In this document: in pieces, positions 5,634-34,865 of the stretch | Numbering within the stretch: the stretch's first letter is position 1 | Layout of the letters: every line of letters begins with the position of its first letter | The notes under the pieces: generated by a model | What the model saw: the letters and a program-made list of their open reading frames with translations, nothing else | The model's database searches: none | Told to the model about the DNA's origin: nothing | From: an uncultured Gammaproteobacteria bacterium | GTDB lineage: Bacteria > Pseudomonadota > Gammaproteobacteria > CAWCPV01 | Direction: 5' to 3' | DNA: 64,000 nt | Assembly (NCBI GenBank): GCA_963797555.1 | Contig: CAWCPV010000003.1 | Location: 448,001 to 512,000 of the forward strand | Program-made: the position numbers and the translations under genes

Positions 5634-7130
5634 TCAGGCCCCGGCGCAGCGAATCCCCAAGCCCTGCTCGGCCAAGGCCACGGCCCGAAAGATGGCGCGG
5701 CCCTTGCTCATGGTCTCTTCCCACTCACGCCGCGGCACCGAATCGTACACGATGCCCGCGCCCGCCTGGATGTGCAGCGCTCCGTCCTTGATGACGGCCG
5801 TGCGGATGGCAATCGCCGTGTCCATGTTGCCGTTCCAGCCGAGGTAGCCGACCGCGCCGGCGTAGATGCCGCGCTTCACCGGCTCCAGCTCCTCGATGAT
5901 CTCCATCGCCCGGATCTTGGGCGCCCCGCTCACCGTCCCCGCGGGGAAAGTAGCGCGCAACACATCCACGGCGGTAAGCCCCGGTTTGAGACGGCCATTG
6001 ACGTTGGAGACGATGTGCATCACGTGCGAGTAACGCTCGATCACCATCTGCTCGGTCACGTGCACCGTGCCGGTCTGGGCGACGCGCCCCACGTCGTTGC
6101 GCCCCAAATCGATGAGCATCAGGTGCTCGGCCCGCTCCTTGGGATCGGCGAGAAGCTCCCGCTCGAGGGCCAGATCCTCGTCCTCGCTGGCGCCTCGCGG
6201 ACGCGTGCCGGCGATCGGGCGCACCGTGACCAAGCCGTCCTCGAGGTGGACCAGTATCTCGGGCGAAGAGCCGACGATGTGGAAGTCCCCGAGGTTGAGG
6301 TAAATCATGTAGGGTGACGGGTTCAGCGTACGCAGGGCGCGGTACAGATCGATGGGAGCCGCGCGAAACGGGATGGATAGGCGCTGCGACAGCACCACCT
6401 GCATGATGTCGCCGTCCACGATGTACTCGCGGGAGCGCGCCACCGCCGCCTCGAACCCCTGCTGCGTGAAGCCGGAGACGAAGTCGCTCTCGCGCACGGG
6501 GGCGGCCGCGGCTAGCCCGGTGTGGACAGGTGTCGGCTGGCAGAGACGGCTGACCAGCTCGTCCAGCCGGGCCTGGACCCGATCCCAGGCATGCGGGACC
6601 TCCGGGTTCACGTGGATCACGATGTACAGCTTGCCGCTGAGGTTGTCGAACACGACCACCTCATCGGACACCATGAGCAGGATATCCGGCGTGTCGAGGG
6701 GGTCCGGTTGGGTGGGACCGCCCAGGCGCGGCTCGATGTACCGGACCGTGTCGTAGCCGAAATAGCCCACCAGCCCGCCGGTAAAGCGCGGCAGACCTCG
6801 GATCTCCGGCGGCATCCGGTAACGGGCCTGGAATCCCACGATCCAGCCCAAGGGATCGCGAACCGTCACCCCCTCGACCTCCTCGCCATCGCGGCAGACG
6901 CGGATGTCATAGCCGCACACGGTCAGGTGAGTGCGGCTCGGCAAGCCGATGATCGAATAACGGCCCCACTTCTCGCCCCCCTGCACGGATTCGAACAAGT
7001 AGGTGTAAGGCTGGTCCGCGAGCTTCAGATAGGCGCTGAGGGGCGTATCGAGGTCGGCCAGCACCTCGCGCATCACCGGGATGCGGTTGTAGCCTTGGGA
7101 AGCCAGCGCACGGAATTGTTCAGGGGTCAC
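5634..7130 (-). CDS. trpE: Anthranilate synthase component I
   Basis: [42 protein letters not shown] and [12 protein letters not shown] motifs. Confidence 0.95.
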
Positions 7131-7181: not shown

Positions 7182-7911
7182 TCACGCCGCCCGCGCCTTC
7201 AGGAGGTCCCTAAGCTCCAGCAGCGAGTCGACGACCGCATCGGGGCGCGCCTCGCGGATGTCGCGGCCGTGATTATAGCCGTAGGTGACGCAAACCACCG
7301 GGAAGCTCGCCGCCCGGGCCGCTTCCACGTCGTTCACCGAATCCCCCACGAACAGGGCCGCCTCCGGTGGGACCCCGAGGCTAGCCGCAGCGTGCAGCAA
7401 GGGAGCCGGATGGGGCTTCTTCTGGGGCACGGTGTCTCCGGACACCACGACCCGGAAGTAGTGACGGATCCCCAGCGCATCGAGCAGAGGCTCCGTGAAC
7501 TGCGCCGCCTTGTTGGTCACGCAGGCGAGCCGGAAACCACTCCCGCGGAGCCATCCCAGGATCTCCCCGCACCCCCGGGTAAAGCCGGCTGAGCCGGCAA
7601 GTGTTCTCTCGATAGCACGCCATGAACAGGGGGAGGGCGCGCTCGTACAGCTCCCGCGGCGGCTCGCCTTCCAGCCGCCCCAGCAGAGCGCGCTGCACCA
7701 GCCGCTCGACCCCGTTGCCCACCCACTGCCGCACGCGCTCCACCGGGCGTTCCGGCAGGCCGAGCTGAATCAGGGCGACGTTGACGCAGTGGGCCAGGTC
7801 CGGCACGCTGTCCACCATCGTCCCATCGACGTCGAGGAGCACCATGGCCGGCGTGAATAGCGGCCGAGGCTCCCCCGGGCCGCCCCCGACGCCCGCCTGC
7901 CGTGCTGACAC
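7182..7911 (-). CDS. gph: Phosphoglycolate phosphatase (HAD), one frameshift near 7570
   Basis: N-half LLDVDGTMVDSVPDL (ORF 7381..8448) and C-half TNK...KKPHPAPL...VGDSVNDV (ORF 7182..7520). Lies in the canonical rpe-gph-trpE order; the shift is in a G/C homopolymer. Confidence 0.88.
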
Positions 7912-17214: not shown

Positions 17215-21541
<4,327 letters not shown>

Positions 21542-21545
21542 TCCC

Positions 21546-22034
21546 ATGGCAGCCAGGTTCTCGGACCACGAAATCGTCCAGATGCTTCGAGAGCGGAAGC
21601 ACTTGCCGGGGGATTACCAGGCGAAGCTACACTTGCGGGAAAAGCGTGGCCATAAGGAACGTGAGCTTGACTTGGAGGGAGAACAGGGGAGCCAGTACCG
21701 GCTGATATTGCGCCAGAGCAATTTCAACTTGCTGGATTTTTCCATCATCCTCGCCTATAGCCCACCGGCTTCGACCCAATTGTTCCGCCTTCGCCGCTAC
21801 AACGGGAAGAGCCACGAACACACCAACCACATCGAGACCACCACGTTCTACGATTTCCACATCCATCAGGCGACCGAGAGATACCAGGCGATCGGTACAC
21901 GCGAGGATGCTTACGCGGAGGCCACCGATCGTTACAGCGACTTCCGCTCGGCGCTTCGATGTCTGTTGGAAGACTGCGGGTTTGAGCATCCCGAGGGTGC
22001 CCAGAAGTCCCTGTTCGGGGAGTTCGATCTATGA
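21546..22034 (+). CDS. Hypothetical protein with His-rich motif (possibly DUF6978-like)
   Basis: Clean 162-aa ORF with [14 protein letters not shown]...FHIH. ATGA overlap with the next gene. Confidence 0.7.
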
Positions 22035-22840
22035 CCATCCAAGCTATTGAACAGGATTTTCGAACGAAGGTCTGCTCCAAGATCCGGCTTGCCGAGGAAG
22101 GTGTCGAACGCTTCCGGGTGTTTACCCCTTTCCTTTTCGAGGACGGGGACCACCTTGCCATCGTCATGAAGCGGGAACCGACCGGTTGGGTGCTGTCCGA
22201 CGAAGGACATACCTATATGCACCTCACCTACGATCTGGACGAGAAAGACCTCCAGCGGGGCACCCGGCAGAAATTGATTGCTGGTGCGTTATCGGTCTTC
22301 CATGTGGAGGACCGGGAGGGGGAGCTGGTCCTGCGTGTCCCGGAGGAGCATTTCGGCGACGCCCTCTATTCCTTTGTCCAGGCGCTGCTCAAGGTCACCG
22401 ACGTTTCCTTCCTCTCGCGGGAACGGGTGCGGTCCACGTTCATGGAGGACTTCCGTGAGATGGTGGAGTCCGCCGTCCCAGAGGATCGGCGGACCTTCGA
22501 CTGGCGCCATCCGCAGCACGACCCCCACGGGATGTACATCGTGGACTGCCGGGTCAACGGCATGACCAGGCCGCTGTTCGTCTATGCCCTCCCGAACGAC
22601 GACCGCGTCAGGGACGCCACCATCGGGCTGCTGCAGTTCGAGAAGTGGGGTGTTTCCCATCGATCCCTGGGGATCTTCGAAGAGCAGGAGTCCATCAACC
22701 GGAAGGTGCTGGCGCGCTTCAGCGATGTGTGCGAGAAACAGTTCTCCAGCCTGGGCGCAAACCGAGAGCGGATCACTCGATACCTGGAAGAGACCACGCA
22801 GGAGGTGGACGCTGAGCAGACCAATGGGCGTGACCATTGA
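22031..22840 (+). CDS. DUF1828 domain protein
   Basis: N-terminal [13 protein letters not shown]...WVLSDEGHT is typical of DUF1828. The C-terminal GMYIVDC region may be restriction-endonuclease-like. Confidence 0.75.
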
Positions 22841-22980
22841 ACGAACAGGCTTGGGGACCTGGCACCTCCAATTCCTTGCGGGCCATCGATCGCCTTCGGC
22901 CGACCCTCCAATTGTTCCCGAACAGGCTTACCACGGGCGTGCTAGCATATCGATACCAAAACGGTATACAGGAGTTGCCT

Positions 22981-23292
22981 ATGGCTTCCGTGCTGATAAA
23001 GAACCTGCCTGACGATCTCCACCGCGCGTTGAAGCAGCGAGCCGAGCGCCACCATCGCAGCCTGAACAAGGAAATCATCGCGCTGATCGAGTCGGCCCTG
23101 ACCGGCCAGGCGGGAAAGGAGCCACCGCAGCCCGCCGGGCTGCGTAGGCCCCTTGCGCAAGAGGTGCTGGATGAGGCCCGGCAGAAAAAGGCGGCGCGCG
23201 TCCTTGCGCTGCGCGGAAAGTACCGGAACTCCGTTTCGTCGAGTGAGGAGTTCGCCGCGCGCAAGGCAGCCGAGATCGAGCTGGAACGCTAA
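22981..23292 (+). CDS. Arc/FitA-like ribbon-helix-helix antitoxin
   Basis: MASVLIKNLPDDLHRALKQRAERHHRSLNKEII. CAGGAG RBS upstream; precedes a PIN gene. Confidence 0.85.
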   Translation: MASVLIKNLPDDLHRALKQRAERHHRSLNKEIIALIESALTGQAGKEPPQPAGLRRPLAQEVLDEARQKKAARVLALRGKYRNSVSSSEEFAARKAAEIELER

Positions 23293-23350
23293 CCGGTCAT
23301 GGCGATTGTCGCCACCCCAGATTATGAAGGCACTTGCGCCATGACCGGTT

Positions 23351-23385
23351 CCCTCACCCCTCCCTCTCCCGCAGGCGGGCGAGGG
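23351..23385 (+). repeat. CCCTCACCCC-type REP-like palindrome
   Basis: CCCTCACCCCT-CCCTCTCCCGC-AG-GCGGGCGAGGG imperfect hairpin between antitoxin and toxin. Confidence 0.55.
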
Positions 23386-23423
23386 CGAGGCGGAGCGCCT
23401 GCGGCGCCTCTTCAGACGAACGC

Positions 23424-23822
23424 ATGAGCTACGTCCTGGATGCGTGCGCTCTCATTGTCTTCCTTCGCGGGGAGGCGGGATCGGAGATTGTCGAAAAACG
23501 CTTGATCGAGGGGACCTGCTACGCGCACGCAGTCAACCTGTGCGAGGTCTACTACGACTGCATCCGCGTCGGGGGAGAGGCCCAGGCCGAAGCGCTGGTC
23601 CGCGAGCTGCTGGATGCGGGTCTGAGCAGCCGTACCGATATCGACGAGGACTTCTGGAAGGACGTCGGGCGGACCAAGGCCGGCGTTGGGCGGATCTCGC
23701 TTGCGGACTGTTTCGCGATCGCCCTGGCGAGGCGGCTGGGCGTGCCCGTACTGACCTCCGATCACCACGAATTCGACGGCATCCTGGCCCAGGGAATCTG
23801 CGCCGTGGAGTTCATTCGGTGA
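23424..23822 (+). CDS. PIN-domain (VapC-like) toxin
   Basis: YVLDACAL, NLCEVYY, ISLADCFAIALA and LTSDHHEF acidic PIN motifs. Confidence 0.9.
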   Translation: MSYVLDACALIVFLRGEAGSEIVEKRLIEGTCYAHAVNLCEVYYDCIRVGGEAQAEALVRELLDAGLSSRTDIDEDFWKDVGRTKAGVGRISLADCFAIALARRLGVPVLTSDHHEFDGILAQGICAVEFIR

Positions 23823-26800
23823 CCGATCGACAGGCAGGCTTGCTCGAGTCGGAGGAAGCAAACAGCGGCGGGCCCCTGACCTGCCTGGGGCTAACCTTCC
23901 CGAACGACGGGGAGCGCCGAAAGCACTTCCTCGGCATTCTGCGCGAGAAGCTGAAGGACCCCGAGTTCCGCAAGATCGAGGGTTTCCCCATCGGCTCGGA
24001 CGAGGACATCCTGCGCCTCTCCGACCCGCCCTATTACACCGCCTGCCCCAACCCTTGGCTCACCGACTTCGTGGCCCATTACGGCCGGCCCTACGACGCG
24101 GCCGAGCCTTACCGCCGCGAGCCCTTCGCCGTGGACGTGAGCGTGGGCAAAACCGACCCGCTCTACAAGGCCCACGGCTACCACACCAAGGTGCCCGCAC
24201 CTCGCCATCGTCCCCTCCATCCTCCACTACACGCGCCCCGGGGACATCGTGCTGGACGGCTTCGCCGGCTCCGGCATGACCGCGGTCGCCGCCCAGTGGT
24301 GCGGCGCCGCCCCGGCCGCGTACCGTTACGAGCTGGAAGCCGAATGGAAGAAGGCCGGACGAGAAAGGCCCCAATGGGGCGCCCGCCGCGCCATCGTCGG
24401 TGACCTCTCGCCCGCTGCCACCTTCATCGCCGCCGGCTACAACCTGCCCTTCGACGTGACGGCCTTCGAGAAGGCTGCGAAACGCCTCCTCGGGGAGGTG
24501 GAGAACGAGATCGGGTGGATGTACAAGACCCTGCATGTGGAGCCTGCTTCCAGCAGGCTCATCCAGCAAACGGGTTTTCAAAAGCCCACTGGAATCGAGC
24601 CGGCTGCAAGCGGGCTCTCAGGCAGGCGGACCGAAGGGATTTCGGAATTCACCGCCCGCCGTGACAACCTCCCACACTGGCAAAGTCCTGGCGCCTTCTA
24701 TTTCCTGACCTTCAACACCAGTCAACACCGTGAATTGTCTCCGGGCGCGCGGGATATCGTGGCTGCAGCCCTGCGACACTGGCACGGGGAGCGGTTGCAG
24801 CTTATCGCCGCGGTCGTCATGCCGGACCACGTTCATGCGTTGATCCAACCGCTCGAAAAACTACCCGGCGTATGGTGGGACCTGGCCGAGCTACTTCACA
24901 GCATCAAGAGTTATTCCGCCAACGAGATCAACAAGCTGGACGACCGTCGGGGCGAGCCTGTGTGGCAGACTGAGAGCTATGACCGGATCGTCCGTGACGA
25001 ACGCGAATACGGCTTCGTGCTGCAATACATCGCCTGGAACCCGATCCGGCAGGGCTTGTGCGACGCTCCGGAGGAGTACCGGTGGTGGATCCAGGGGGAG
25101 GGGTTGAGAAAGGCCGGCTGGAAGCCGGCCCACCGGGCAGGATCAACTACACCGTCTGGAGCGAGGTATTCACCTGTCCCGAGTGCTCGGGCGAGGTGGT
25201 GTTCCTGGAGCAGGCGCTGGACCCGCAGACCAAGCGGGTGAAGGAGGCATTTCCCTGTCCCCATTGCGGGGCGGGACTACCAAGAAGCCGCATGGAGCGG
25301 TTTTACGAGTCCAGGTACGACGCCGCCACCGGTCGACCCGCCGCGTACCCAAGCGCGTGCCCGTGCTCATCAACTACAAGGTGGGTAAGCACGTATTCGA
25401 GAAGGCGCCGGACGCCCATGATTTTGAGATCATCCGCCGCATCGAGGCAGTGCCCCTGCCGCTCGAAGTGCCCACCGACGAGATCCCCCATATGCACATG
25501 ACGCATGAGCGGGCCCGCATGGATCCCGCGGGCGTCACCCACCTCCACCAGTTCTTCCTCCCCCGCCAGGCCCAAGCCCTGGGACTGCTGTGGCGCAAGG
25601 CGCAGGCGGAGGCCGATCCGACGTTGCGGCGGATGCTGCTATTCCTCGTTGAGCAGGCGATCTGCGGGATGTCGGTGCTAAACCGATATGGCCACGCAAG
25701 TTCTCCCAGGTCAACCAGTACCTCCCCGGCGTCTACTACATTCCTCCCAGATCTGCGAGGTCTCGCCCTGGTACGCCTGGACGGCAAGGCCAGCCGTCTC
25801 GGGACGGTTTTCCGGAAGTGGGGCCGGCTTCCAGCCGGCTGAGCCGACAGGATGGTGACTACACATGCGTCACCACTGGCACCGCAGCCGCGCTTGGCAT
25901 CCCGGACAACAGCATCGACTATATCTTCACCGACCCGCCCTTCGGCGAGAACATCTATTACGCCGACTTGAACTTTCTGGTGGAATCCTGGCATCGGGTA
26001 CGCACCGACGCCGAGCCGGAGGCCATCGTGGACCAGGCCAAGAAGAAGGGCCTGCCCGAGTACCAGCATCTGATGCAGCAGTGCTTCGTCGAGTATTGCC
26101 GGGTGCTCAAGCCCGGCCGCTGGATGACGGTGGTCTTTCACAACTCCAGGAACGCGGTCTGGAACGCCATCCAGGAGGCCATGCAGGCGGCGGGCTTCGT
26201 GGTGGCGGACGTGCGCACCCTGGACAAGCAGCAGGGCTCTTACCGCCAGGTGACCAGCACCGCGGTCAAGCAGGACCTGGTCATTTCCGCCTACAAGCCC
26301 AACGGCGGTCTGGAGCAACGCTTCCAGCTCGCCGGCGGCACCGAGGAAGGGGTCTGGGATTTCGTGCGCGCCCACCTCGGGCAACTGCCCGTGTTCGTGG
26401 CGCGCGAGGGCCGCGCCGAGACCATCGCCGAGCGCCAGCCCTACTTCCTCTATGACCGCATGGTCGCCTTCCACGTCCAGCGGGGCATGACCGTGCCGCT
26501 CTCCGCAGCCGAGTTCTACCGGGGGCTGCAGACCCGCTTCATCCCGAGAGACGGCATGGTCTTCCTCCCAGACCAGGCATCCGAATACGACAGGAAGCGC
26601 CTGACCGTCCGGGAGGTGGCGCAGCTCGAAATCGCCGTCTCCGATGAAGCTTCCGCCGTCGGATGGCTGCGTCAGGAACTCTCCAGGAAGCCGCAGACCT
26701 TCCAGCAGCTTCAGCCGCGTTTCATGGAGACCACTCGCGCCGGCTGGCAGAAGCACGAGAAGCCCCTGGAGCTCATGGAGCTGCTGGGGCAGAACTTCCT

Positions 26801-27263
26801 GCACTACGACGGCACGAACCCTATCCCCGCCCAGCTCGTGTCTTGGATGAGACAGAGCGAACCCCTGCGCAAGCTCATCGAGGAAGCCGTCGCGTCCGGC
26901 GATGCCGAGCTGGACAATGGGCAACTGCGCTTCTGTGACGAACGGAAAACGCCGAGCGCCGAACTCAGAACACGCGCCAAAGCGCGCTGGTATGTCCCGG
27001 ACCCGAATAAGGCCGGCGACCTCGAGAAGCTGCGCGACCGTGCGCTCCTCAAGGACTTCGAGGAGTATCGGACCTCCAGCCAGAAGCGCCTGAAGGTCAT
27101 CCGCATCGAGGCCGTCCGCGCCGGATTCAAGAAGGCGTGGCAGGAGCGCGATTACGCCACTATCATCACCGTGGCCCGCAAGATTCCCGAAAATGTCCTC
27201 CAGGAAGACCCGAAGCTCCTCATGTGGTGCGACCAAGCGTTGACCAGAACAGGAGGTCACTGA
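23819..27263 (+). CDS. pglXI: BREX type III DNA methyltransferase PglXI with an inserted RAYT-like domain (several frameshifts)
   Basis: LSDPPYYTACPNPW, YHTKVP, SAM motif VLDGFAGSGMT, zinc ribbon CPEC...CPHC, catalytic YIFTDPPF, RVLKPGRW and C-terminal WYVPDPNKAGDLEKLR. GTG start overlaps the vapC stop. Confidence 0.88.
24537..25133 (+). mobile_element. REP-flanked RAYT-like (HUH/Y1 tyrosine transposase) cassette inside pglXI
   Basis: Encodes RRDNLPHW, FYFLTF, HUH motif VMPDHVHAL, IKSYSA, VWQTESYDRIVR and YIAWNP. Bounded by inverted REPs GTGGAGCCTGCTTCCAGCAGGCTC (24537-24560) and GGCCGGCTGGAAGCCGGCCCAC (25112-25133), with a degenerate copy at 24597-24617. Confidence 0.88.
25818..25840 (+). 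repeat. Solitary REP copy within pglXI
   Basis: GTGGGGCCGGCTTCCAGCCGGCT, the same family as the cassette ends. Confidence 0.8.
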
Positions 27264-27264
27264 C

Positions 27265-29283
27265 ATGCCATCCGAAACAAAGGCCACCCGTTCGGTTATC
27301 ACACCGAACGACCAGTTCCTTCGCGACGTTTTCGGTGTTTCGAAAGCATATTATGTTGACATCTACCAGCGCGAGTACAAGTGGACGAAAGATAATGTCG
27401 AAACACTCCTCAAGGACATTGAGGGGTATTTTGAGGAGAAACCACGTAACAAAACCGATCCCCGCGACATCCAAGCTGAAGTCAAGGAGGACTTTGAGCC
27501 CTATTTTATCAACACCTACCTGACACACAGTACGGCTAAAAACGTCTCCATTGTTGACGGCCAGCAGAGGCTGACCACTTTCCTTCTGATTCTCATCAAG
27601 CTCTACCATGTACTGAAGACGGTTGAAAAGGACAGTGCGCACTCTGGCAGAACGTTTAGCAGTCAGGCCATCGAGAAGCTAATTTTCGAGAGTGACGACT
27701 TCGGCGGCGCAGGTCGCTTCAAAATATTCAACGAAAACCGAGAAGCAACATTCAGAAGACTCGTTGAGTGTCAACCGATCCAACCGAAAGACGAAACTCA
27801 AAAGCGCATCAAGGACAACTATGACACAATTAGTGAATATTTCGACCGATTCCTTGCCGCGAACGAAGAGCCCGAACGTTACAGCCTGCGTAAGATTACG
27901 TATTACCTTTGCTATTTGCTCGATCGCGTTTCGATCGTTGAGATCAAGATAGAAAAGCAGAAAAACGTGCCCATGATTTTTGAAGTCGTCAACGATCGCG
28001 GGCTAGGTCTTTTGCCATATGAGATCCTCAAGGGCAAGCTGATCGGCAATCTGCCAGTTGAACAAAAGGAACACGCCAATTCTGTTTGGACCCAATTGCA
28101 GGACGACTACTTCAACGCCAACGCTGAGCTGAAGAACAGCACTGAAGCACAACTTGACCTTGACATGTTTTTTCGTACATTCCTGCGCGCCAAGTTCGCG
28201 GACTCGGAAAGCGAGTATGACAAGTTCGAAGGCGATTATCATAACAAGATGTATCGAGATCCGAAGGTACGAGCTTACTTTCAGGATTTTGCCGATCATA
28301 ATCTACTCTACAGCCGTGTTACAGGAGATATCAAATACTTCACAGACATCTATCTGTGGCTAAGGACGACTTACGATAACGAGTACTTGATTTTTAACAA
28401 GCTGTTGGATCAGAACCTACAATACCTACTGATTCTATCGAACCTCACGGCCAACGATCCCGAACTATCCACGAAAGTAACAGGAATTGCGAAAAAGTTC
28501 GATCAGTTCCACGCCGTAATCCGGTTGTTGGACATATACGAAAGTAGTGCGTTTCAGAGAACCATTTTCCCTGTCAATCGGGATATAAGGGATCGGTCGG
28601 TTCCTCAGGCCAAAGCGGTCTTTGATCGGGAATTGATTCGTAACCTGGAAGAATCTGAGGCAGTTCGTACAGGTGAGGTAAGGACAATGGAAGACCTTTT
28701 TACCTTCGAAAGATTTCGGGGAGTCCGCAATAGGTGGGTCAATTTCAGCAAGTACGTGTTGATGCGTGTCGACCGCTATCTAGCGGAACAACTTGACAAG
28801 CCATCCTATGCTAGTGGCCCTCTGGAAGATCTGGAGGAGCACTTCAATAGGACGACGAGACGCAGGTATGGCATGCATCTGGAACACATTTACGCTAACA
28901 ATGAGGCCAACATGGCGCTTTTCGCTCAAGGTGAGTACGGATTTGACGAACAAGCTTTCAATACAGAGCGCAACAAGCTAGGTATGGTCCTTTTATTGAA
29001 GGACAGTCAAAACCTCAGCAGTGGCAATGATAAATATTGTGGCAAGGTGGATACTTACGCGAAGAGCAACTTCATTTGGAATGAGATGCTGGCAGGCCAT
29101 CTGCCTTCTGTTGACGAACGTAACCTTCCCGAGGATTTACGTGTAGGAGCCGTTCCGCCTGATATGTCTGGTGTCTTCCCAAGAGACAAGATCGAGGATC
29201 GGCAACGGCTTATTTATAATGCAATAAGACGTCTTTGGTATGAAAATGTTGGCGACGACCGAGCAACAGCTTCCGACTGCTAG
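27265..29283 (+). CDS. GmrSD-like (DUF262 + DUF1524/HNH) putative modification-dependent restriction endonuclease
   Basis: YQREYKW, IVDGQQRLTT and FEVVNDRG (DUF262); LEHIY...NKLGMVLLL...NLSSGN (HNH-like). Visibly AT-richer than its flanks. Confidence 0.85.
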   Translation: MPSETKATRSVITPNDQFLRDVFGVSKAYYVDIYQREYKWTKDNVETLLKDIEGYFEEKPRNKTDPRDIQAEVKEDFEPYFINTYLTHSTAKNVSIVDGQQRLTTFLLILIKLYHVLKTVEKDSAHSGRTFSSQAIEKLIFESDDFGGAGRFKIFNENREATFRRLVECQPIQPKDETQKRIKDNYDTISEYFDRFLAANEEPERYSLRKITYYLCYLLDRVSIVEIKIEKQKNVPMIFEVVNDRGLGLLPYEILKGKLIGNLPVEQKEHANSVWTQLQDDYFNANAELKNSTEAQLDLDMFFRTFLRAKFADSESEYDKFEGDYHNKMYRDPKVRAYFQDFADHNLLYSRVTGDIKYFTDIYLWLRTTYDNEYLIFNKLLDQNLQYLLILSNLTANDPELSTKVTGIAKKFDQFHAVIRLLDIYESSAFQRTIFPVNRDIRDRSVPQAKAVFDRELIRNLEESEAVRTGEVRTMEDLFTFERFRGVRNRWVNFSKYVLMRVDRYLAEQLDKPSYASGPLEDLEEHFNRTTRRRYGMHLEHIYANNEANMALFAQGEYGFDEQAFNTERNKLGMVLLLKDSQNLSSGNDKYCGKVDTYAKSNFIWNEMLAGHLPSVDERNLPEDLRVGAVPPDMSGVFPRDKIEDRQRLIYNAIRRLWYENVGDDRATASDC

Positions 29284-32116
29284 TAAATGGTACTACAGCC
29301 CGGACCACGGGCAGCTCTGTCAGGTCATCGAAACCCAGACGCTCTGGGGTGAGACGACCTGCCGCGTCTGGCTGCCCGGGCGTGACTCCGTGGTCCGCAT
29401 CCCGGCTTCCAGGCTCAAGCCCCTGGAGAGCCGCGGTACCGGTTCGCCGGACGATATCGCCTACGTCGCTGCCGCCGCGCGGGTGGCCGACGCCCTGACC
29501 CAGGACGTTCTGCTCGCACCCATCGAGTCCTCCGTCATCCCGCTGCCGCACCAGATTCGGGCCCTGTCCCGCGCCATCGCCAACGACCGGGTGCGCTATC
29601 TGCTGGCGGACGAGGTCGGCTTGGGCAAGACCATCGAGGCCGGGCTCATCATGCGGGAGCTGAAGCTCCGCGGGCTGGTCAAGCGGACGCTGGTCGTTGC
29701 CCCGAAAGGACTGGTGAGCCAGTGGGTCAGCGAGATGCGCTTTCACTTCGGGGAGACCTTCCAGCTCGTGCTGCCCGAGGACATCAAGACACTGAAGCGG
29801 ATTGCCCCGACGACGGGTCCGGGAAGGGGCGAGCGTGGCAATCACGACCTGAAGGTTCTTCCCGCCAACGCCTGGCAGATGTTCTCCCAGATGGTCGTGC
29901 CGATGGATTCGGTCAAGCCCCTGGACAAGCGCCGCGGATGGAGCGCCGCCCAGGTGGGCGAGTACAACCGCGAGCGGTTCGAGGACCTGATCTCTGCCGG
30001 CTGGGACCTGGTCATCGTCGACGAGGCGCATCGCCTCGGCGGCAGCACCGACCAGGTAGCCCGCTTCAAGCTGGGCCAGGGGCTCTCCGAGGCCGCGCCG
30101 TATCTCCTGCTGCTTTCGGCCACCCCGCACCAGGGCAAGACCGACGCCTTCCATCGGCTCGTCTCCTTGATCGACGCCCAGGCGTTCCCGGACATCGGCA
30201 GCGTCACCCGCGAGCGGGTCCAGCCGTATGTGATCCGCACCGAGAAACGCCGCGCCATCGACGCCGAGGGGAAGCCGCTGTTCAAACCCCGGCGAACCGA
30301 GCTTGGGCCGGTCTCCTGGCAAGAGCGCCACCGCGATCAGCAGCTCCTCTACGAGGCGGTCACCGAGTACGTCCGCGAGGGCTACAACCAGGCGATGCGG
30401 GAGAAGCGCAGCTACATCGGCTTCCTGATGATCCTGATGCAGCGCCTGGTGGTCTCCAGCACGAGCGCCATCCGCACCACCCTCGAAAAGCGGCTGGAGG
30501 TGCTCGCCGAGCCCGAGGAACAACTGACCCTGTTCCCGCTCACGTCCGAGGACGAATGGGCGGACCTGGACGGCCAGGAGCAGATGGACGTGCTCCTTCG
30601 CACCCGCCTCAAGGCGCTCAAGAACGAGCGCGCCGAGGTCAGGCTGTTGTTGGAGGCCGCGGCCCGCTGTGAGCAGGCCGGTCCGGACGCCAAGGCCGAG
30701 GCGCTGCTCGACTGGCTCTACCGCCTTCAGTCCGAGGAAGGCGACCCGGAGCTCAAGGCGCTGGTGTTCACCGAGTTCGTGCCCACCCAGGAGATGCTGC
30801 AGCGGTTCCTGACCGAGCGGGGATTTTCGGTCGTTTGCCTCAACGGCTCCATGGACATGGAGGAGCGCAAGCGGGTCCAGGAGGCATTCGCCCAGGACGC
30901 CCGCATTCTCGTCTCCACCGACGCTGGTGGCGAGGGGTTGAACCTCCAGTTCTGCCATGTGGTGGTCAACTACGACATTCCCTGGAACCCGATGCGCATC
31001 GAGCAGCGGATCGGCCGGGTGGATCGTATCGGGCAGTCCCATACCGTGCGCGCGGTCAACCTGGTCTTCGAGGACTCGGTCGAGCACCGGGTCCGGGAAG
31101 TGCTGGAGCAGAAGCTCGCCGTCATCTTCGAGGAGTTCGGCATCGACAAGACCGGTGACGTGCTCGATTCGGCGCAGGCCGGCCGGATGTTCGACGAGAT
31201 GTATGTCGAGGCGATCCTTCATCCCGAAACGGTCGATGAGTCGGTGGACAGCGTGGTCGCCCGACTGCGGGAGGAGGTGCGCGAGGCGCGCGCGACCGCA
31301 TCGGTGCTCGGCGCGAGCGAGGAGCTGGAGCCCGGCGCAGCCCAGCGGCTGCTGAGCCACCCCTTGCCGCATTGGGTGGAGCGCATGACCGTGAGCTATC
31401 TGAAGGCTCATGGGGGCCGGGCGGAGAGGAAGGGCCAGGGCTGGAACCTGACCTGGCCCGACGGCCAGACTTACGACAATGTCGTCTTTACGGGCAAGGA
31501 GGCCGAGAGGCTTCCGGCCGCCCGCCATCTCACTCTGGAAGACCCGAAGGTCCGCGGCCTGGCTATGCGGCTTCCCCGCTTCGCGCCCGGCCAGCCGGTC
31601 CCGGTGGTGTCGATCCCGAGCCTTGCCGAGGAGGTCCGGGGCATCTGGTCCCTGTGGCGGATCGCCATCGCCGCCGCGGAGTGGAACCGCCGTAGGATCA
31701 TGCCTCTCTTTCTGGCCGACAACGGCAGGGTCTTCATGCCGACGGCCAGACACATCTGGGACCAGCTCCTCGGGGCCAGCCCGAAGGTCCGGGCCACTCT
31801 CGATCCCGACGCCTCGCAGGCCGCCTTCGCGCAGCTCCAGAAGGTCGCGGAGGAGCACGGGCGGCCCATCTACGAGGCGCTCGTGCAGGAGCACCAGGCC
31901 CGCATCGCCCGCGAGCGCGAGAAGGCCGACTACGCCTTCGCCGCCCGCCGCAGGACCATCGAGCGGAGCGGCCTGTCGCAGGTGCGCCACCATCGCCTGA
32001 ACCTGCTTGCGCAGGAGGAGCGGAGTTTCCAGGAGCAGCTTGACCAGAAGGCCCATGCCTATCCCGAAATGGTGCCGCTGCTTGTGATTCGGGTGGAGGG
32101 CGGTGGCCATGAGTAG
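29240..32116 (+). CDS. brxHII: BREX type III SNF2-family helicase BrxHII
   Basis: LLADEVGLGKT, IVDEAH, LSATPHQG, STDAGGEGLNLQF and PWNPMRIEQRIGRVDRIGQ motifs; located between pglXI and pglZ. Confidence 0.9.
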   Translation: MKMLATTEQQLPTASKWYYSPDHGQLCQVIETQTLWGETTCRVWLPGRDSVVRIPASRLKPLESRGTGSPDDIAYVAAAARVADALTQDVLLAPIESSVIPLPHQIRALSRAIANDRVRYLLADEVGLGKTIEAGLIMRELKLRGLVKRTLVVAPKGLVSQWVSEMRFHFGETFQLVLPEDIKTLKRIAPTTGPGRGERGNHDLKVLPANAWQMFSQMVVPMDSVKPLDKRRGWSAAQVGEYNRERFEDLISAGWDLVIVDEAHRLGGSTDQVARFKLGQGLSEAAPYLLLLSATPHQGKTDAFHRLVSLIDAQAFPDIGSVTRERVQPYVIRTEKRRAIDAEGKPLFKPRRTELGPVSWQERHRDQQLLYEAVTEYVREGYNQAMREKRSYIGFLMILMQRLVVSSTSAIRTTLEKRLEVLAEPEEQLTLFPLTSEDEWADLDGQEQMDVLLRTRLKALKNERAEVRLLLEAAARCEQAGPDAKAEALLDWLYRLQSEEGDPELKALVFTEFVPTQEMLQRFLTERGFSVVCLNGSMDMEERKRVQEAFAQDARILVSTDAGGEGLNLQFCHVVVNYDIPWNPMRIEQRIGRVDRIGQSHTVRAVNLVFEDSVEHRVREVLEQKLAVIFEEFGIDKTGDVLDSAQAGRMFDEMYVEAILHPETVDESVDSVVARLREEVREARATASVLGASEELEPGAAQRLLSHPLPHWVERMTVSYLKAHGGRAERKGQGWNLTWPDGQTYDNVVFTGKEAERLPAARHLTLEDPKVRGLAMRLPRFAPGQPVPVVSIPSLAEEVRGIWSLWRIAIAAAEWNRRRIMPLFLADNGRVFMPTARHIWDQLLGASPKVRATLDPDASQAAFAQLQKVAEEHGRPIYEALVQEHQARIAREREKADYAFAARRRTIERSGLSQVRHHRLNLLAQEERSFQEQLDQKAHAYPEMVPLLVIRVEGGGHE

Positions 32117-34116
32117 CTGGCGCGATCAAATTCTGAAGGAGTTCACGCCGAAGGTCGCCAGACTCACCTTGGTGGCGGACCCGGACGGGCTCCTGCTCGA
32201 AGAGGGGATTCTCGAAGGTATTCGCGAGCGCGGATTCGAGCTGATCCCGTTCGAAGACCCCATCGCCTTCCGCTACGCCTACGAATCGAAGTTCCGCTCC
32301 CGCTGGGACCGGGGCGAGCACACGGACCTCGTAGTCGTATTGCGTTCCCAGGACGCACGACCTCGGCTCTCTGCCCTATGACCTCCTCCAGGCCGGCCGC
32401 AAGCTATCCTTCAGCCTCGGTGAGATCTTCCCGAACCTGAGCTACCCGGTCGTGGCTGCTCTCGACCGCGGGGACCTGGAGGCCCTCTACGAGGCCCAGA
32501 AGCGGCATGCGCCCGGCCAGTTGGGCGAAAACGCCACGAAGGAATTCATCCTCCGGCACGTCTTTGAAATTGCCCCGGAGCTGATCAAACAGGCGTCGGA
32601 CCTGCTGCGGGTGCTGTTGCGGCGGCATTATCGCGGTCAGCGAATCCCGACCGTCCTCGACGAACGGTTCATCCAACTACTGCGCCAGAGCAACGCCTTC
32701 GACGATTGGCCGCTTCAAACCCTCGTATCGGACCGGGAAGTTTTCTTCGCATTCCTCCAGGAGCGCTGGTCGATCTTCCTCGACCGCGAGGCGGCCAAGG
32801 GGCCGTCTGGCGTTCAGGAACACAAAGAACCTTATCGTCTGGCCACGGAGGGACCCGTCGATCTGCCCTTCGATCATCATGACATCAGGGTCTACGTCGA
32901 CAACCTGTTCATCGAAGGCCTGCTCCACTCCGTACCCCACGACCAGGCAGGTGCTCTTTCCAAGACGTGGGCAGGCATCGGCGTTCGAGCCGAACCAACC
33001 GAGGACCGGTCTCGTCGCCTGACCAAGCTCATCGAAAGCCTGCAAGCATCCGTTCCGGCCGAGGACGCCAGGTACGGGGACTGGCTCCACTTCGCCCGCC
33101 GATGGGCGGAGCTGGTCCTGCTGGCCAACGAGCGGACCGAGGCCCTTCCCGCGCAGACGAGTGCCACCGTCAGAGAGCTACAGGCGCAGGTGGATTCAGG
33201 GTTCGCTGCCTGGCTCTCGAAGCGGTATGCGGGTCTCGTCAACCTGCCGCCGGTTCCTCCGGTCATGCTGCACCATCTTCCGCGGTTTCTTTCCCGCCAA
33301 CTGGGGGAAGGCCGCAGCGCCAAGATCGCGCTGCTCGTGGTCGACGGCCTCGCCATGGACCAGTGGCTGGTCGTCCGCGAAGCGCTGGCCTCGCGGCAGT
33401 CCGGCTTCCGTTTCCGGGAGCAAGCGATCTTCGCCTGGATTCCCTCACTCACGACCGTCTCGCGCCAGGCCGCCTTCGCCGGCAAGGCTCCAATCTTCTT
33501 CCCGAACAGCATCCAGACGACGGACAAGGAGCCCGCACTATGGGCGCAGTTCTGGCTGGATCAAGGCTTCACGTCAAACGAGGTCGTGTACATCAAGGGA
33601 CTGGGTGACGGCAGTCTGGAGACCGTTTCCGAAGCGCTTTCTCATCCCAAGGCAAGGGTCGCCGGGCTGGTCGTGGACAAGGTCGACAGGATCATGCACG
33701 GGATGGAAATGGGGACGGCCGGAATGCATAACCAAGTGCGCCAGTGGGCACAGCAGCCGTACCTGAGCATGCTCCTCGATATGCTCCTGGACAGGGGGTT
33801 CCGTGTCTATCTAACCAGCGACCACGGCAATCTCGAAGCAGAGGGCTGCGGCCGTCCGGCAGAAGGGGCTGTGGCAGACGTGCGCGGTGAACGAGTCCGC
33901 ATCTACCCCAACGCGGCCCTTCGCAAAAATGTGAAGCAGCGTTTCCCGGGTGCCCTCGAGTGGGACCCCATCGGTCTGCCCGACGATTACCTCGCTCTCC
34001 TGGCTCCTGCTCGGCAGGCGTTTGTCCGCGAGAAGCAGCGCACCGTGAGCCATGGCGGCATCTCGGTCGAGGAACTCATCGTCCCTCTGGTTCAGATCGA
34101 GAGGAGTGGTGAATGA
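32109..34116 (+). CDS. pglZ: BREX type III alkaline-phosphatase-fold protein PglZ (frameshift near 32360)
   Basis: MSSWRDQILKEF...LVADPDGLL, then LLVVDGL, PSLTTVSRQA, LTSDHGN and SHGGISVEELIVP. Confidence 0.9.
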
Positions 34117-34865
34117 CCGCAGCACGGACAGGCCAGATCGGATTCAGTCAGCGCGTGCGTCTGGAATGGCTCGAGCAGACAGCCAACTTGGTCCTCGCCG
34201 GGAACGACAAGGCCGCGGTCAACGATGCCTTGCAGGCGCTCCTGAAAGACAAGGTGTCCGTCGGCGGCCAAGCCAAGCGCGGCAATCGCGAGAAGATCAT
34301 CAGCATCCTGACCAAGGTGTGGGTCATGGCTCCGGCCAGGCTGAAGTCCCTCCGAGCAAGTGGCCTGGAGCTGCTCAAGCGCGTCCCGCAAACCGATCAC
34401 GTGGCCGTCCACTGGGGCATGGTCATGGCCGTCTATCCGTTCTGGTCGGACGTAGCCACCCAGGTTGGCCGCCTTCTGAGGCTGCAGGGCTCCGCGGCTG
34501 CGGCGCACGTCCAGCGTCGCGTCCGGGAGCAGTACGGCGAGCGGGAAACGGTTTCCCGGGCCGCTCGTCGCGTCCTGCGCTCGTATCTGGATTGGGGCGT
34601 GCTCAAGGAAACCGGCGACACGGGCATCTACAGCGCGAGTGCCGTCTTGTCAATCGACGATTCTCGGCTGATCGCCTGGCTAGCCGAAGCATCCCTCCAT
34701 GCGCGCGCTAACGGTTCCGCCCCGCTCAAAGACCTCATCGACAGCCCGAACCTTTTCCCGTTCCGCCTCGAGCCAATTCACGCTCAGAGCCTGCTGGCGG
34801 CGTCTACTTGCCTCCATATCCTTCGTCACGGTCTGGACGACGACCTAGTGATGCTGCGGAAATAG
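34113..34865 (+). CDS. brxA: Putative BrxA-like DNA-binding protein (last BREX type III gene)
   Basis: 250-aa ORF overlapping the pglZ stop (ATGA), at the brxA position of type III BREX. Assignment rests mainly on synteny. Confidence 0.65.
   Translation: MTAARTGQIGFSQRVRLEWLEQTANLVLAGNDKAAVNDALQALLKDKVSVGGQAKRGNREKIISILTKVWVMAPARLKSLRASGLELLKRVPQTDHVAVHWGMVMAVYPFWSDVATQVGRLLRLQGSAAAAHVQRRVREQYGERETVSRAARRVLRSYLDWGVLKETGDTGIYSASAVLSIDDSRLIAWLAEASLHARANGSAPLKDLIDSPNLFPFRLEPIHAQSLLAASTCLHILRHGLDDDLVMLRK

Follow-up and report, generated by a model that had tools for sequence, protein, structure and literature searches.

The window analysed here is a stretch of 64,000 nucleotides (C3:448001-512000, that is, on contig C3) from a 5.35-Mb, 20-contig metagenome-type assembly of 84.6% completeness. 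At positions 24537-25133 it holds a complete REPtron, that is, the gene of a REP-associated tyrosine transposase (RAYT) between two inverted repetitive extragenic palindromes (REPs). The unit lies inside pglXI, the PF01555-type methyltransferase gene of a bacteriophage exclusion (BREX) type 3 operon (23825-27263, + strand; delimited with tblastn of the homologues P0003, P0006, P0001, and P0073), in the loop between WMYKTLH and GRINYTVWS; this identification was confirmed. Comparison of sequences further shows the unit at the same codon in many PglXI lineages that are not each other's closest relatives. We consider it probable that it is a selfish, translated, non-spliced in-frame REPtron that sits in a surface loop of PglXI and moves between alleles.

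The first-pass annotation, made from the letters of the window and a list of its open reading frames (ORFs), had described one frame running from the methyltransferase into a RAYT-like insert, and this description held. ORF 24249-25241 (+, 330 aa) reads DGFAGSG ... GWMYKTLH, then VEPASSRL ... KAGWKPAH, and the insert carries the motifs LPHW, YFLTF, MPDHVH, WQTESYD, and YIAWNP. The catalytic core spans 24669-25090 (+), with LPHW at 24669, the HUH motif (HVH) at 24828-24836, and the catalytic tyrosine motif YIAWNP at 25026-25043. Similarity to Y1 transposases, on which the annotation had made its proposal depend, was found with the Pfam profile Y1_Tnp (E 1.4e-5; 25.6 bits, cut-off 23); NCBIfam NF047646, 'REP-associated tyrosine transposase', matched at E 5.1e-29 (101.1 bits, cut-off 80). 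The insert sequence on its own gave no match in a phmmer search of the PDB; a profile of the insert with 49 relatives matched TnpAREP of E. coli (4ER8) at E 1.1e-14 and the TnpA proteins of IS200/IS605 at 1.8e-5 or weaker. The AlphaFold2 model of the insert has a pLDDT of 88.3, with low confidence (53-59) in the first 30 residues, which are encoded by the left REP and a linker. Its top Foldseek match is again 4er8_A (E 1.1e-8; TM 0.55 normalised to the query, 0.66 to the target), followed by IS200/IS605 TnpA. The RAYT is present once in the genome, and six other Y1-like matches (on C3, C4, and C6) are at most 31% identical to it. Assignment to IS200/IS605 was rejected on these grounds: the insert is nearer to TnpAREP, the 597-nt unit has no second ORF, and there is one copy. 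The insert is free of stops in the host frame across 199 codons. It would be translated as an internal domain of the host protein, because the only start codon of its own is the GTG of the left REP tag.

The palindromes that the first-pass annotation had seen at both ends of the insert were recovered by folding and by a scan of the genome. The left REP (24537-24560, +) consists of a GTGG tag and a 9-bp stem with the 3-nt loop TCC (-10.4 kcal/mol, z -4.1) and reads VEPASSRL; the right REP (25111-25133, -), its inverted partner, has GTGG and an 8-bp stem with the same loop (-10.8 kcal/mol, z -3.4) and reads AGWKPA. The unit is thus flanked by inverted REPs with 5' tags of the GTAG type, at 24537 (+) and 25133 (-). 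A third REP with a degenerate partner (25818-25860, +; GTGGGG and a stem of 7-8 bp; frame 0 reads VGPASSRLSRQDGD) lies farther along pglXI, just upstream of the segment VTTGTA...DPPFG. A second hairpin in the N-terminal linker of the insert (24597-24617, +; one mismatch, loop GCA) is imperfect and weak (-7.6 kcal/mol, z -2.0). Among 139 sites with GTGG and a perfect hairpin in the genome, the apex GCTTCCAGC occurs in only three, all in pglXI (24537, 25133, and 25818), and this confinement is not due to chance. Two larger families of GTGG-tagged perfect hairpins exist in the same genome, with apex GAGCTTCTC (16 copies) and apex CCGCTCATCGG (11 copies).

The hairpins are maintained across distant loci. 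Five loci that differ in G+C content (46-65%) share the same 19-nt REP cores (left, AGCCTGCTTCCAGCAGGCT; right, AGCCGGCTTCCAGCCGGCT). Synonymous sites are saturated between most of these loci and the cores are nevertheless unchanged, so that the hairpins are kept as nucleic acid and not as peptide. The tag is GTAG in loci L006 and L008 and GTGG in L005 and L007; the His codon before it is CAT in every case. P0282 and P0290 translate the left hairpin in a different frame, as GAGFQPA, and in them the two arms of the stem have changed places around an unaltered loop. Cognate REPs are few: the five genomes hold 3, 3, 8, 2, and 6 copies, mostly on the contig of pglXI, so that the dispersed REP or REPIN population of a classical RAYT is not seen (three cognate REPs in 5.35 Mb here, 2-8 in the four other genomes).

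Short loops in other PglXI proteins, which the first-pass annotation had named as the state of PglXI homologues, were confirmed. Of the 120 best full-length homologues of the pglXI C-terminus, 61 have 14 residues from GWMY to YTVWS, with the loop TDGKTK; the same loop is present in four of the nine homologues missed by the pattern search, and the rest of the 120 have loops of 36-61 residues. Two of the 120, P0073 (1132 aa) and P0001, have the same insert in the same place, with the junctions GWMY(E/H)TLH, then VEPASSR ... AGWKPAP, then LGRIEYTVWSE. The empty site was judged on protein homologues because a DNA search of 40 relatives, the closest of which share only the class, gave no locus homologous to the pglXI region.

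A search for further PglXI proteins with the domain at this loop, as the annotation had suggested, extended the pattern. Among 226 cluster representatives (those of the first PglXI search plus those of another protein search made around the insert region of L007), 38 contain a RAYT, and in 36 of these it stands in frame at the codon position of the window, mostly in single open frames of 1000-1230 aa. In these 36 alleles the insert starts with VEP (or VEA, VQA, TSG) and ends with KPAP followed by L, R, Q, or P and then G. All occupied alleles are without five or six loop codons (TDGKTK) that are present in the nearest empty alleles. The source labels include Thermotogota, Chloroflexota, Rubrobacteraceae, and Opitutaceae, and one isolate, Desulfonatronovibrio magnus (P0279); the automatic names of some occupied alleles read "REP-associated tyrosine transposase". 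The insert was also searched for in one genome per species, which gave seven loci; four of them (L005-L008) are within PglXI. Two of these four, L007 and L008, are uninterrupted open frames, and L007 adjoins an intact BrxC. An intein was rejected as the nature of the insert: the N-terminal Cys/Ser, the C-terminal His-Asn, and the downstream Cys/Ser/Thr expected of splicing are absent from the 36 alleles.

The same loop varies in other ways. About half of the RAYT-free PglXI proteins (P0011-P0119) have an insert of 36-61 residues between GWMY and YTVWS, with a common helical motif (EWAEKLRACKTADEIRSLL, or STKDTKGHEDEILK...CPSW), and the loop is a general hotspot of length variation. Descent of these longer loops from former elements was considered and found unsupported, the loops having a helical EWAEKLRACKTADEIR motif and no REP peptides. 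P0345 and P0358 have a different RAYT (34-37% identical) at a second, N-terminal site before the YHREPFA segment, with borders of another REP type (GQAFRPA, GRLESLPH).

Additional REPs accompany the RAYT. Of the 36 occupied alleles, 13 have REP-encoded peptides outside the main insert, as against 1 of the 188 empty ones. These peptides lie in a few recurrent loops; one such loop is the site of the third REP of the window, where P0302 has a REP pair. The comparison shows extra REP copies gathering, as far as these alleles indicate, almost only in RAYT-bearing PglXI genes. In L008 in-frame REP pairs occur inside the RAYT, between the HUH and tyrosine motifs, and again downstream in the host part (PglXI residues ~400-440 and ~600-640). 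In L006 an out-of-frame array of at least three REPs is present at 7790-7880, near the HL..LPVFV loop, and at 6631 TAG replaces a conserved Trp; this pglXI is dead, and it shows that REPs are able to kill the host gene.

Host and insert phylogenies were compared with each other. On the tree of the C-terminal part of PglXI (450 columns, without the insert), 30 occupied of 214 rows correspond to 18 changes, at least 12 of them forced by starred branches, and the sister of the window is the empty allele P0006 (support 99*). An approximately unbiased (AU) test on 66 rows rejected trees in which the occupied alleles form one clade (delta lnL 1119, p 5e-7). The tree of the 112-130 residues just upstream of the insert gave 17 changes for 35 occupied of 214 rows and put the window beside the same empty alleles as before. 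On their own tree, the 38 inserts fall into two deep groups (100/95*); both groups are found in host clades A and B, with at least three and at least five changes forced by starred branches. The inserts of L006 and L007 are 82% identical in amino acids (dS 1.07), and their host flanks 75% (dS 2.5, saturated). P0331 has an empty site with a solo REP, and its neighbour on the tree is the occupied P0275. Simple vertical descent with losses does not appear to fit these trees. The shared loop codons missing from occupied alleles and present in their nearest empty relatives argue for a junction copied between alleles, which would be favoured over repeated fresh insertion. A reversible switch by precise excision was considered and is unlikely: from GTGG to CCAC the unit measures 559 nt in L005-L007 (the 561 nt that separate the His and Gly codons, after subtraction of 2 host bases), which is 1 modulo 3, and the loop codons are gone.

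Between L006 and L007 the insert has a nonsynonymous divergence (dN) of 0.105 and a synonymous divergence (dS) of 1.07, a dN/dS of 0.098; the upstream host flank, with 0.077, is constrained to the same degree. This pair is the only one used, since dS was not computable (-1) for five of ten pairs and exceeded 1.5 for four more. In two alignments, one of 63 embedded relatives and one of 50 that are mostly free-standing, residues H98, H100, Y164, and N168 of the insert vary little or not at all; both alignments have the HUH histidines without exception, and the catalytic tyrosine is invariant in one of them and nearly so in the other. Taken with the unchanged cores, these values show what appears to be a RAYT kept active by selection and hairpins kept as DNA structures.

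Relatives of the insert are embedded in other proteins also. A search of 1.84 billion representatives gave 8560 relatives at E <=0.001; of the best 150 of these, the RAYT is flanked by 100 or more residues on each side in 38, has an extension on one side in 26, and is free-standing in 86. Hosts of the 63 extended forms scanned (the 64 without P0121 of the window itself) are Ham1/RdgB (11), AlaRS (10), class I aminoacyl-tRNA synthetases of the ValRS type (8), PurH (7), RecG (3), PriA (2), DUF1156 methylases (2), Hsp70 (DnaK) (1), and shikimate kinase (1), besides PglXI and MmeI-type methylases. The borders of these embedded relatives are the same hairpin read in differing frames (GTGVSPV, GAGFQPA, HRLEAGAT, RRDACPT). 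In a FastTree tree of all cores, the PurH inserts form one clade and the PglXI inserts a few clades; inserts in AlaRS, ValRS, methylases, and helicases are mixed and weakly resolved.

As assembled, the window's own pglXI is not continuous. At the right junction frame 0 reads KAGWKPAHRAGS and the next frame PPGRINYTVW; the first-pass annotation had proposed that one C added here would restore the methyltransferase frame. One base fewer in the C run does part the insert from that frame, but the correction does not restore the gene. Compared with intact homologues, pglXI changes frame at least seven times, always between 24190 and 25850: at ~24190, 25130 (in the right REP), ~25339, 25692, 25735, 25770, and in the third REP. 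Since the host gene has these breaks, the fusion protein could not be made from the sequence as assembled. The brxC gene has breaks near 17940, 19266, 19552-19587, 20029, and 20700, all of them +1 shifts; in the four where the extra base could be placed (all except that near 19552-19587) it is an added G, which in three lengthens a run of G or GG. The pglXI lesions lie in short C runs, and six of the seven are one C fewer (one G at the third REP). By direction, the five brxC breaks and the first in pglXI are +1 (added G; added C in pglXI), and the next six in pglXI are one base fewer. Neither a nonsense substitution nor a larger deletion was found among the ~13 lesions of the window's BREX genes. 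Unbroken are the RAYT, the last 470 codons of pglXI, the GmrSD-type gene, brxHII, and brxA.

The broken segments of pglXI are 78% and 72% identical to the sister P0006, two intact homologues being 63% identical to each other there; the intact C-terminus has a like pattern (81% against 78%). Because the changes are single bases in short G or C runs and the protein shows no extra divergence, the breaks are read as consensus errors or as very recent. Switches of codon phase number ~15 per 8.6 kb in the BREX stretch (genome mean 8.3, standard deviation 2.9, 95th percentile 13, 99th percentile 16), a count that is high but not unique in the genome. The stretch with the most such switches is that of an AcrB/AcrD/AcrF-family gene at C4:574700-579000 (L012 6719-10952, -), which is divided among four or more overlapping ORFs that differ in frame (profile positions 1-54, 35-115, 420-468, and 778-910) and adjoins an IS91-type Y2 transposase and a tyrosine integrase. 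Of the public runs, one alone was listed as sharing words with the window stretch (8% of words), and no RNA run was listed. Its contigs match in three pieces of low depth (23952-23988, 24532-24682, and 24718-24975); they cover parts of the RAYT at >=99.6% identity, and no piece lies over 25128-25133 or the other breaks.

The surrounding operon contains the families BrxF, BrxC, PglXI, BrxHII, PglZ, and BrxA in canonical order (Pfam, NCBIfam, PADLOC). It has the gene set of BREX type 3 (NCBIfam BREX_PglZ_3 at 693.6 bits, with BrxF, BrxC, PglXI, BrxHI/BrxHII, and BrxA in PADLOC), and its core frames are not intact as assembled, with one frame change in brxF, five in brxC, and at least seven in pglXI. 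All genes are on the + strand: brxF, broken (17215-17730; PADLOC BrxF 1.9e-13 over profile positions 1-45 of 158; frame change near 17330; matched in two frames by the BrxF-like ORF of L006); brxC/pglY (DUF6079; 17799-21538; 80-87% identical to the BrxC of L007, in six successive frames through five +1 shifts); pglXI (motif I DGFAGSG at ~24258, motif IV DPPFG at ~25930; PADLOC PglXI 755 bits for 25851-27260); an intact GmrSD-type (DUF262/DUF1524) nuclease gene (27265-29283; Pfam GmrSD_N 3.3e-28 and GmrSD_C 3e-8; PADLOC); brxHII, an intact SNF2-type helicase gene (29240-32116; PADLOC BrxHI/BrxHII 1595 bits; Pfam); pglZ of BREX type 3 (32452-34116; BREX_PglZ_3, the ORF covering profile positions 111-642); and brxA, intact (34113-34865; PADLOC 337.7 bits). 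The N-terminal part of pglZ is outside the frame of its ORF, which starts at profile position 111 of 642, and 32103-32452 may hold a further frame break. Cargo that is not BREX lies within the operon at 21546-23822 and 27265-29283 and is unbroken throughout. Between brxC and pglXI there are four further ORFs; three ORFs overlap by 4 nt, one of these three matches the PADLOC candidate PDC-M24B, and the small ORF 23426-23822 looks PIN-like and was matched by no NCBIfam model.

In the mechanism that we propose, a co-oriented REPtron in frame would be translated as an internal domain of PglXI and not spliced out, its hairpins being read as short linkers rich in Pro, Ser, Ala, and Gly (VEPASSRL and AGWKPAP). 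By its in-frame seat in a tolerant loop of a conserved gene, the selfish element would gain expression and protection from deletion. The RAYT would act mainly in cis on single-stranded DNA, as do IS200/IS605 and TnpAREP, and cleave CA or CT beside the hairpins, and the element would pass between PglXI alleles by site-specific transposition or by short-tract recombination. In the window the host gene as assembled is broken, by consensus errors or very recent frameshifts, and the RAYT frame is whole. The selfish nature, the cis action, and the movement between alleles are inferred. Several points weigh against this account. Both sets of 120 PglXI proteins are best-hit lists and no random samples; the AU test used empty rows that were chosen with the first tree already in view, and it omitted four occupied rows on long branches; and the FastTree trees have many unresolved forks, starred branches forcing only four changes on that of the N-terminal flank. 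The shared missing loop codons would be awkward for many independent transpositions and would fit one origin with recombination better. That the RAYT may mobilise REPs is suggested by a single association (13/36 against 1/188), and the low REP copy number is unlike classical RAYT/REPIN systems. Purifying selection and conserved catalytic residues would be expected equally of a domesticated domain, and production of the fusion protein and cutting of REPs by the RAYT are predictions.

Of the two readings offered in the first-pass annotation, an in-frame cassette tolerated in a loop is supported by the occurrence of the unit at the same codon in 36 of 226 representatives, and the other, domestication, fared less well. 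Under the latter, BREX type 3 would have recruited an HUH domain that nicks single-stranded phage or fork DNA, or diversifies PglXI, the hairpins being retained recognition sites. The insert is in frame, with catalytic residues intact and a dN/dS of ~0.1 across distant lineages; it is present in intact BREX type 3 operons (in L007 both BrxC and PglXI are whole); among the other hosts are DNA methyltransferases that belong to defence or restriction-modification, DUF1156 and MmeI-type; and BREX has no known nuclease effector. Four observations nevertheless make it a rather improbable explanation: 188 of the 226 representatives (from the two best-hit lists), including the nearest relatives of the window, have no RAYT, and occupation is patchy on the host tree with an incongruent RAYT tree; close relatives of the RAYT sit likewise in AlaRS, ValRS, RdgB, PurH, and DnaK, which are unrelated to defence; the REP hairpins are conserved at the DNA level; and REP copies spill into the host gene and damage PglXI in L006 through the out-of-frame array. 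A single ancient insertion, inherited vertically with PglXI and lost many times without horizontal movement, would explain the identical junctions and the same missing loop codons in all occupied alleles, as well as P0331, empty with a solo REP beside the occupied P0275, as a loss would leave it. We hold it to be unlikely, with somewhat better prospects than domestication, as the RAYT tree departs from the host tree (both deep RAYT groups occur in clades A and B), the inserts of L006 and L007 are more alike than their host flanks, and empty alleles beside occupied ones have the full TDGKTK loop, which simple excision cannot recreate.

Plain disruption of pglXI by a transposon, with the open left junction a one-in-three accident, would agree with a right junction that is out of frame as assembled and a gene broken elsewhere too. 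It is hardly credible in view of the 36 other representatives that are in frame at both junctions at the same codon, the 199 insert codons without a stop in the host frame, and the constant frame in which five independent DNA loci read the hairpins as linkers. The state of the host gene is a separate matter, on which alone the proposed REPtron and an explanation by assembly errors compete: pglXI, brxC, and brxF would then be intact in the cell and the full PglXI-RAYT fusion would be made. The ~13 lesions are all single-base, in short C runs (pglXI) or, for three of the four placed, in G or GG runs (brxC); they are directional, all +1 in brxC and six of seven -1 in C runs in pglXI; the broken segments are no more diverged from P0006 than intact homologues are mutually; the assembly is of metagenome type, in 20 contigs and 84.6% complete; and the AcrB-family accessory locus is likewise split over at least four frames. 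On the other side, the breaks are confined to BREX genes, with none in the 0.6-kb RAYT, the last 1.4 kb of pglXI, the GmrSD-type gene (2 kb), brxHII (2.9 kb), brxA, or the cargo at 21.5-23.8 kb; long ORFs elsewhere in the window are whole; and L006 shows real inactivation of an occupied PglXI, by TAG for Trp and the REP array. We give assembly errors an even chance: very recent inactivation is about as likely as consensus errors in DNA that varies between strains and has poor coverage.

In the current view a RAYT is a free-standing gene in single copy, perhaps domesticated, in the service of an intergenic REP population. The unit described here resembles the REPtrons and TnpAREP of E. coli (4ER8), Stenotrophomonas, and Marinomonas in its Y1 HUH fold with HUH and Tyr motifs and in its one copy per genome. 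It differs from them in being translated inside a host protein, without an ATG of its own, and not free-standing between genes, in having 2-8 REPs per genome and not tens to hundreds, and in occupying one particular codon of one host gene across many phyla. Its hairpins are like the group 3 REPs of Corneloup et al. (2021; PMC8266576): they are inverted, and a perfect stem with a 3-nt loop follows immediately on a GT(A/G)G tag. The same paper further describes cleavage at CA or CT guided by the GTAG tag, and REPs clustered near a recently arrived REPtron. The CA just 5' of the tag (CAT, then GTGG, in five loci) is one of these cleavage dinucleotides, and the clustering near the RAYT gene is like that given there for Marinomonas REPs.

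Palindromic repeats in frame within ORFs are described by Di Nocera et al. (2013; PMC3733652) and Quentin et al. (2018; PMC6006769) as adding 20-30 residues; intragenic REPs and Rickettsia palindromic elements are there said to be frequent in replication and repair genes and tRNA synthetases. Those repeats are hairpins alone, whereas the in-frame insert of pglXI comprises a whole transposase gene of ~190 codons. Quentin et al. (PMC6006769) describe in-frame REPs of tnpAREP genes between the HUH and Tyr motifs (subclass 2.4), which the REPs inside the RAYT of L008 match, and state that unexpectedly long proteins were discarded as fusions or annotation errors. Full-text searches of the literature gave no account of a RAYT embedded, in frame, in PglXI or any other host protein; such cases may stand in the supplementary tables of the two papers, which list intragenic REPs and the discarded long proteins and were outside those searches. 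Like inteins with homing endonucleases, the unit is a probably selfish insert translated in conserved, often essential nucleic-acid enzymes, at the same site in distant lineages, patchily, and with disagreement between insert and host phylogenies; unlike them, it has an HUH single-strand nuclease and not a LAGLIDADG or HNH enzyme, and presumably stays in the mature protein. With IS200/IS605 and IStrons it shares a Y1 transposase, here predicted to act on hairpin ends in single-stranded DNA, and IStrons likewise neutralise their insertion into genes; it has neither TnpB nor a group I intron, and harm would be avoided by frame-preserving translation and not by RNA splicing. The operon itself departs from canonical BREX type 3 by the REPtron and extra REP in pglXI, by the GmrSD-type gene and four ORFs, and by brxF, brxC, and pglXI being frame-broken as assembled.

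A RAYT as a translated internal domain at one exact site of PglXI would extend the known RAYT/REP system, and its apparent recurrence in dozens of unrelated bacteria speaks against a one-off accident. More tentatively, and with the balance somewhat against it, we suggest a branch of RAYTs with an intein-like life without splicing: in-frame units in permissive loops of conserved nucleic-acid and nucleotide enzymes, made only within the host protein, would keep their catalytic centre and hairpins, re-enter a codon-exact site in empty alleles (by HUH homing or REP-guided short-tract recombination), and seed in-frame REPs into their own pglXI, reshaping the specificity subunit of a defence system. 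If true, selfish DNA would have a second route, besides inteins and self-splicing introns, for hiding in conserved genes; over-long annotations such as "methylase/transposase" or "tRNA ligase" would be explained; and the occupied alleles would supply a natural collection of linker peptides and of loops that tolerate an inserted domain. For BREX, the question would then be whether a single-strand nuclease fused to PglXI affects methylation, defence, and the evolution of specificity.

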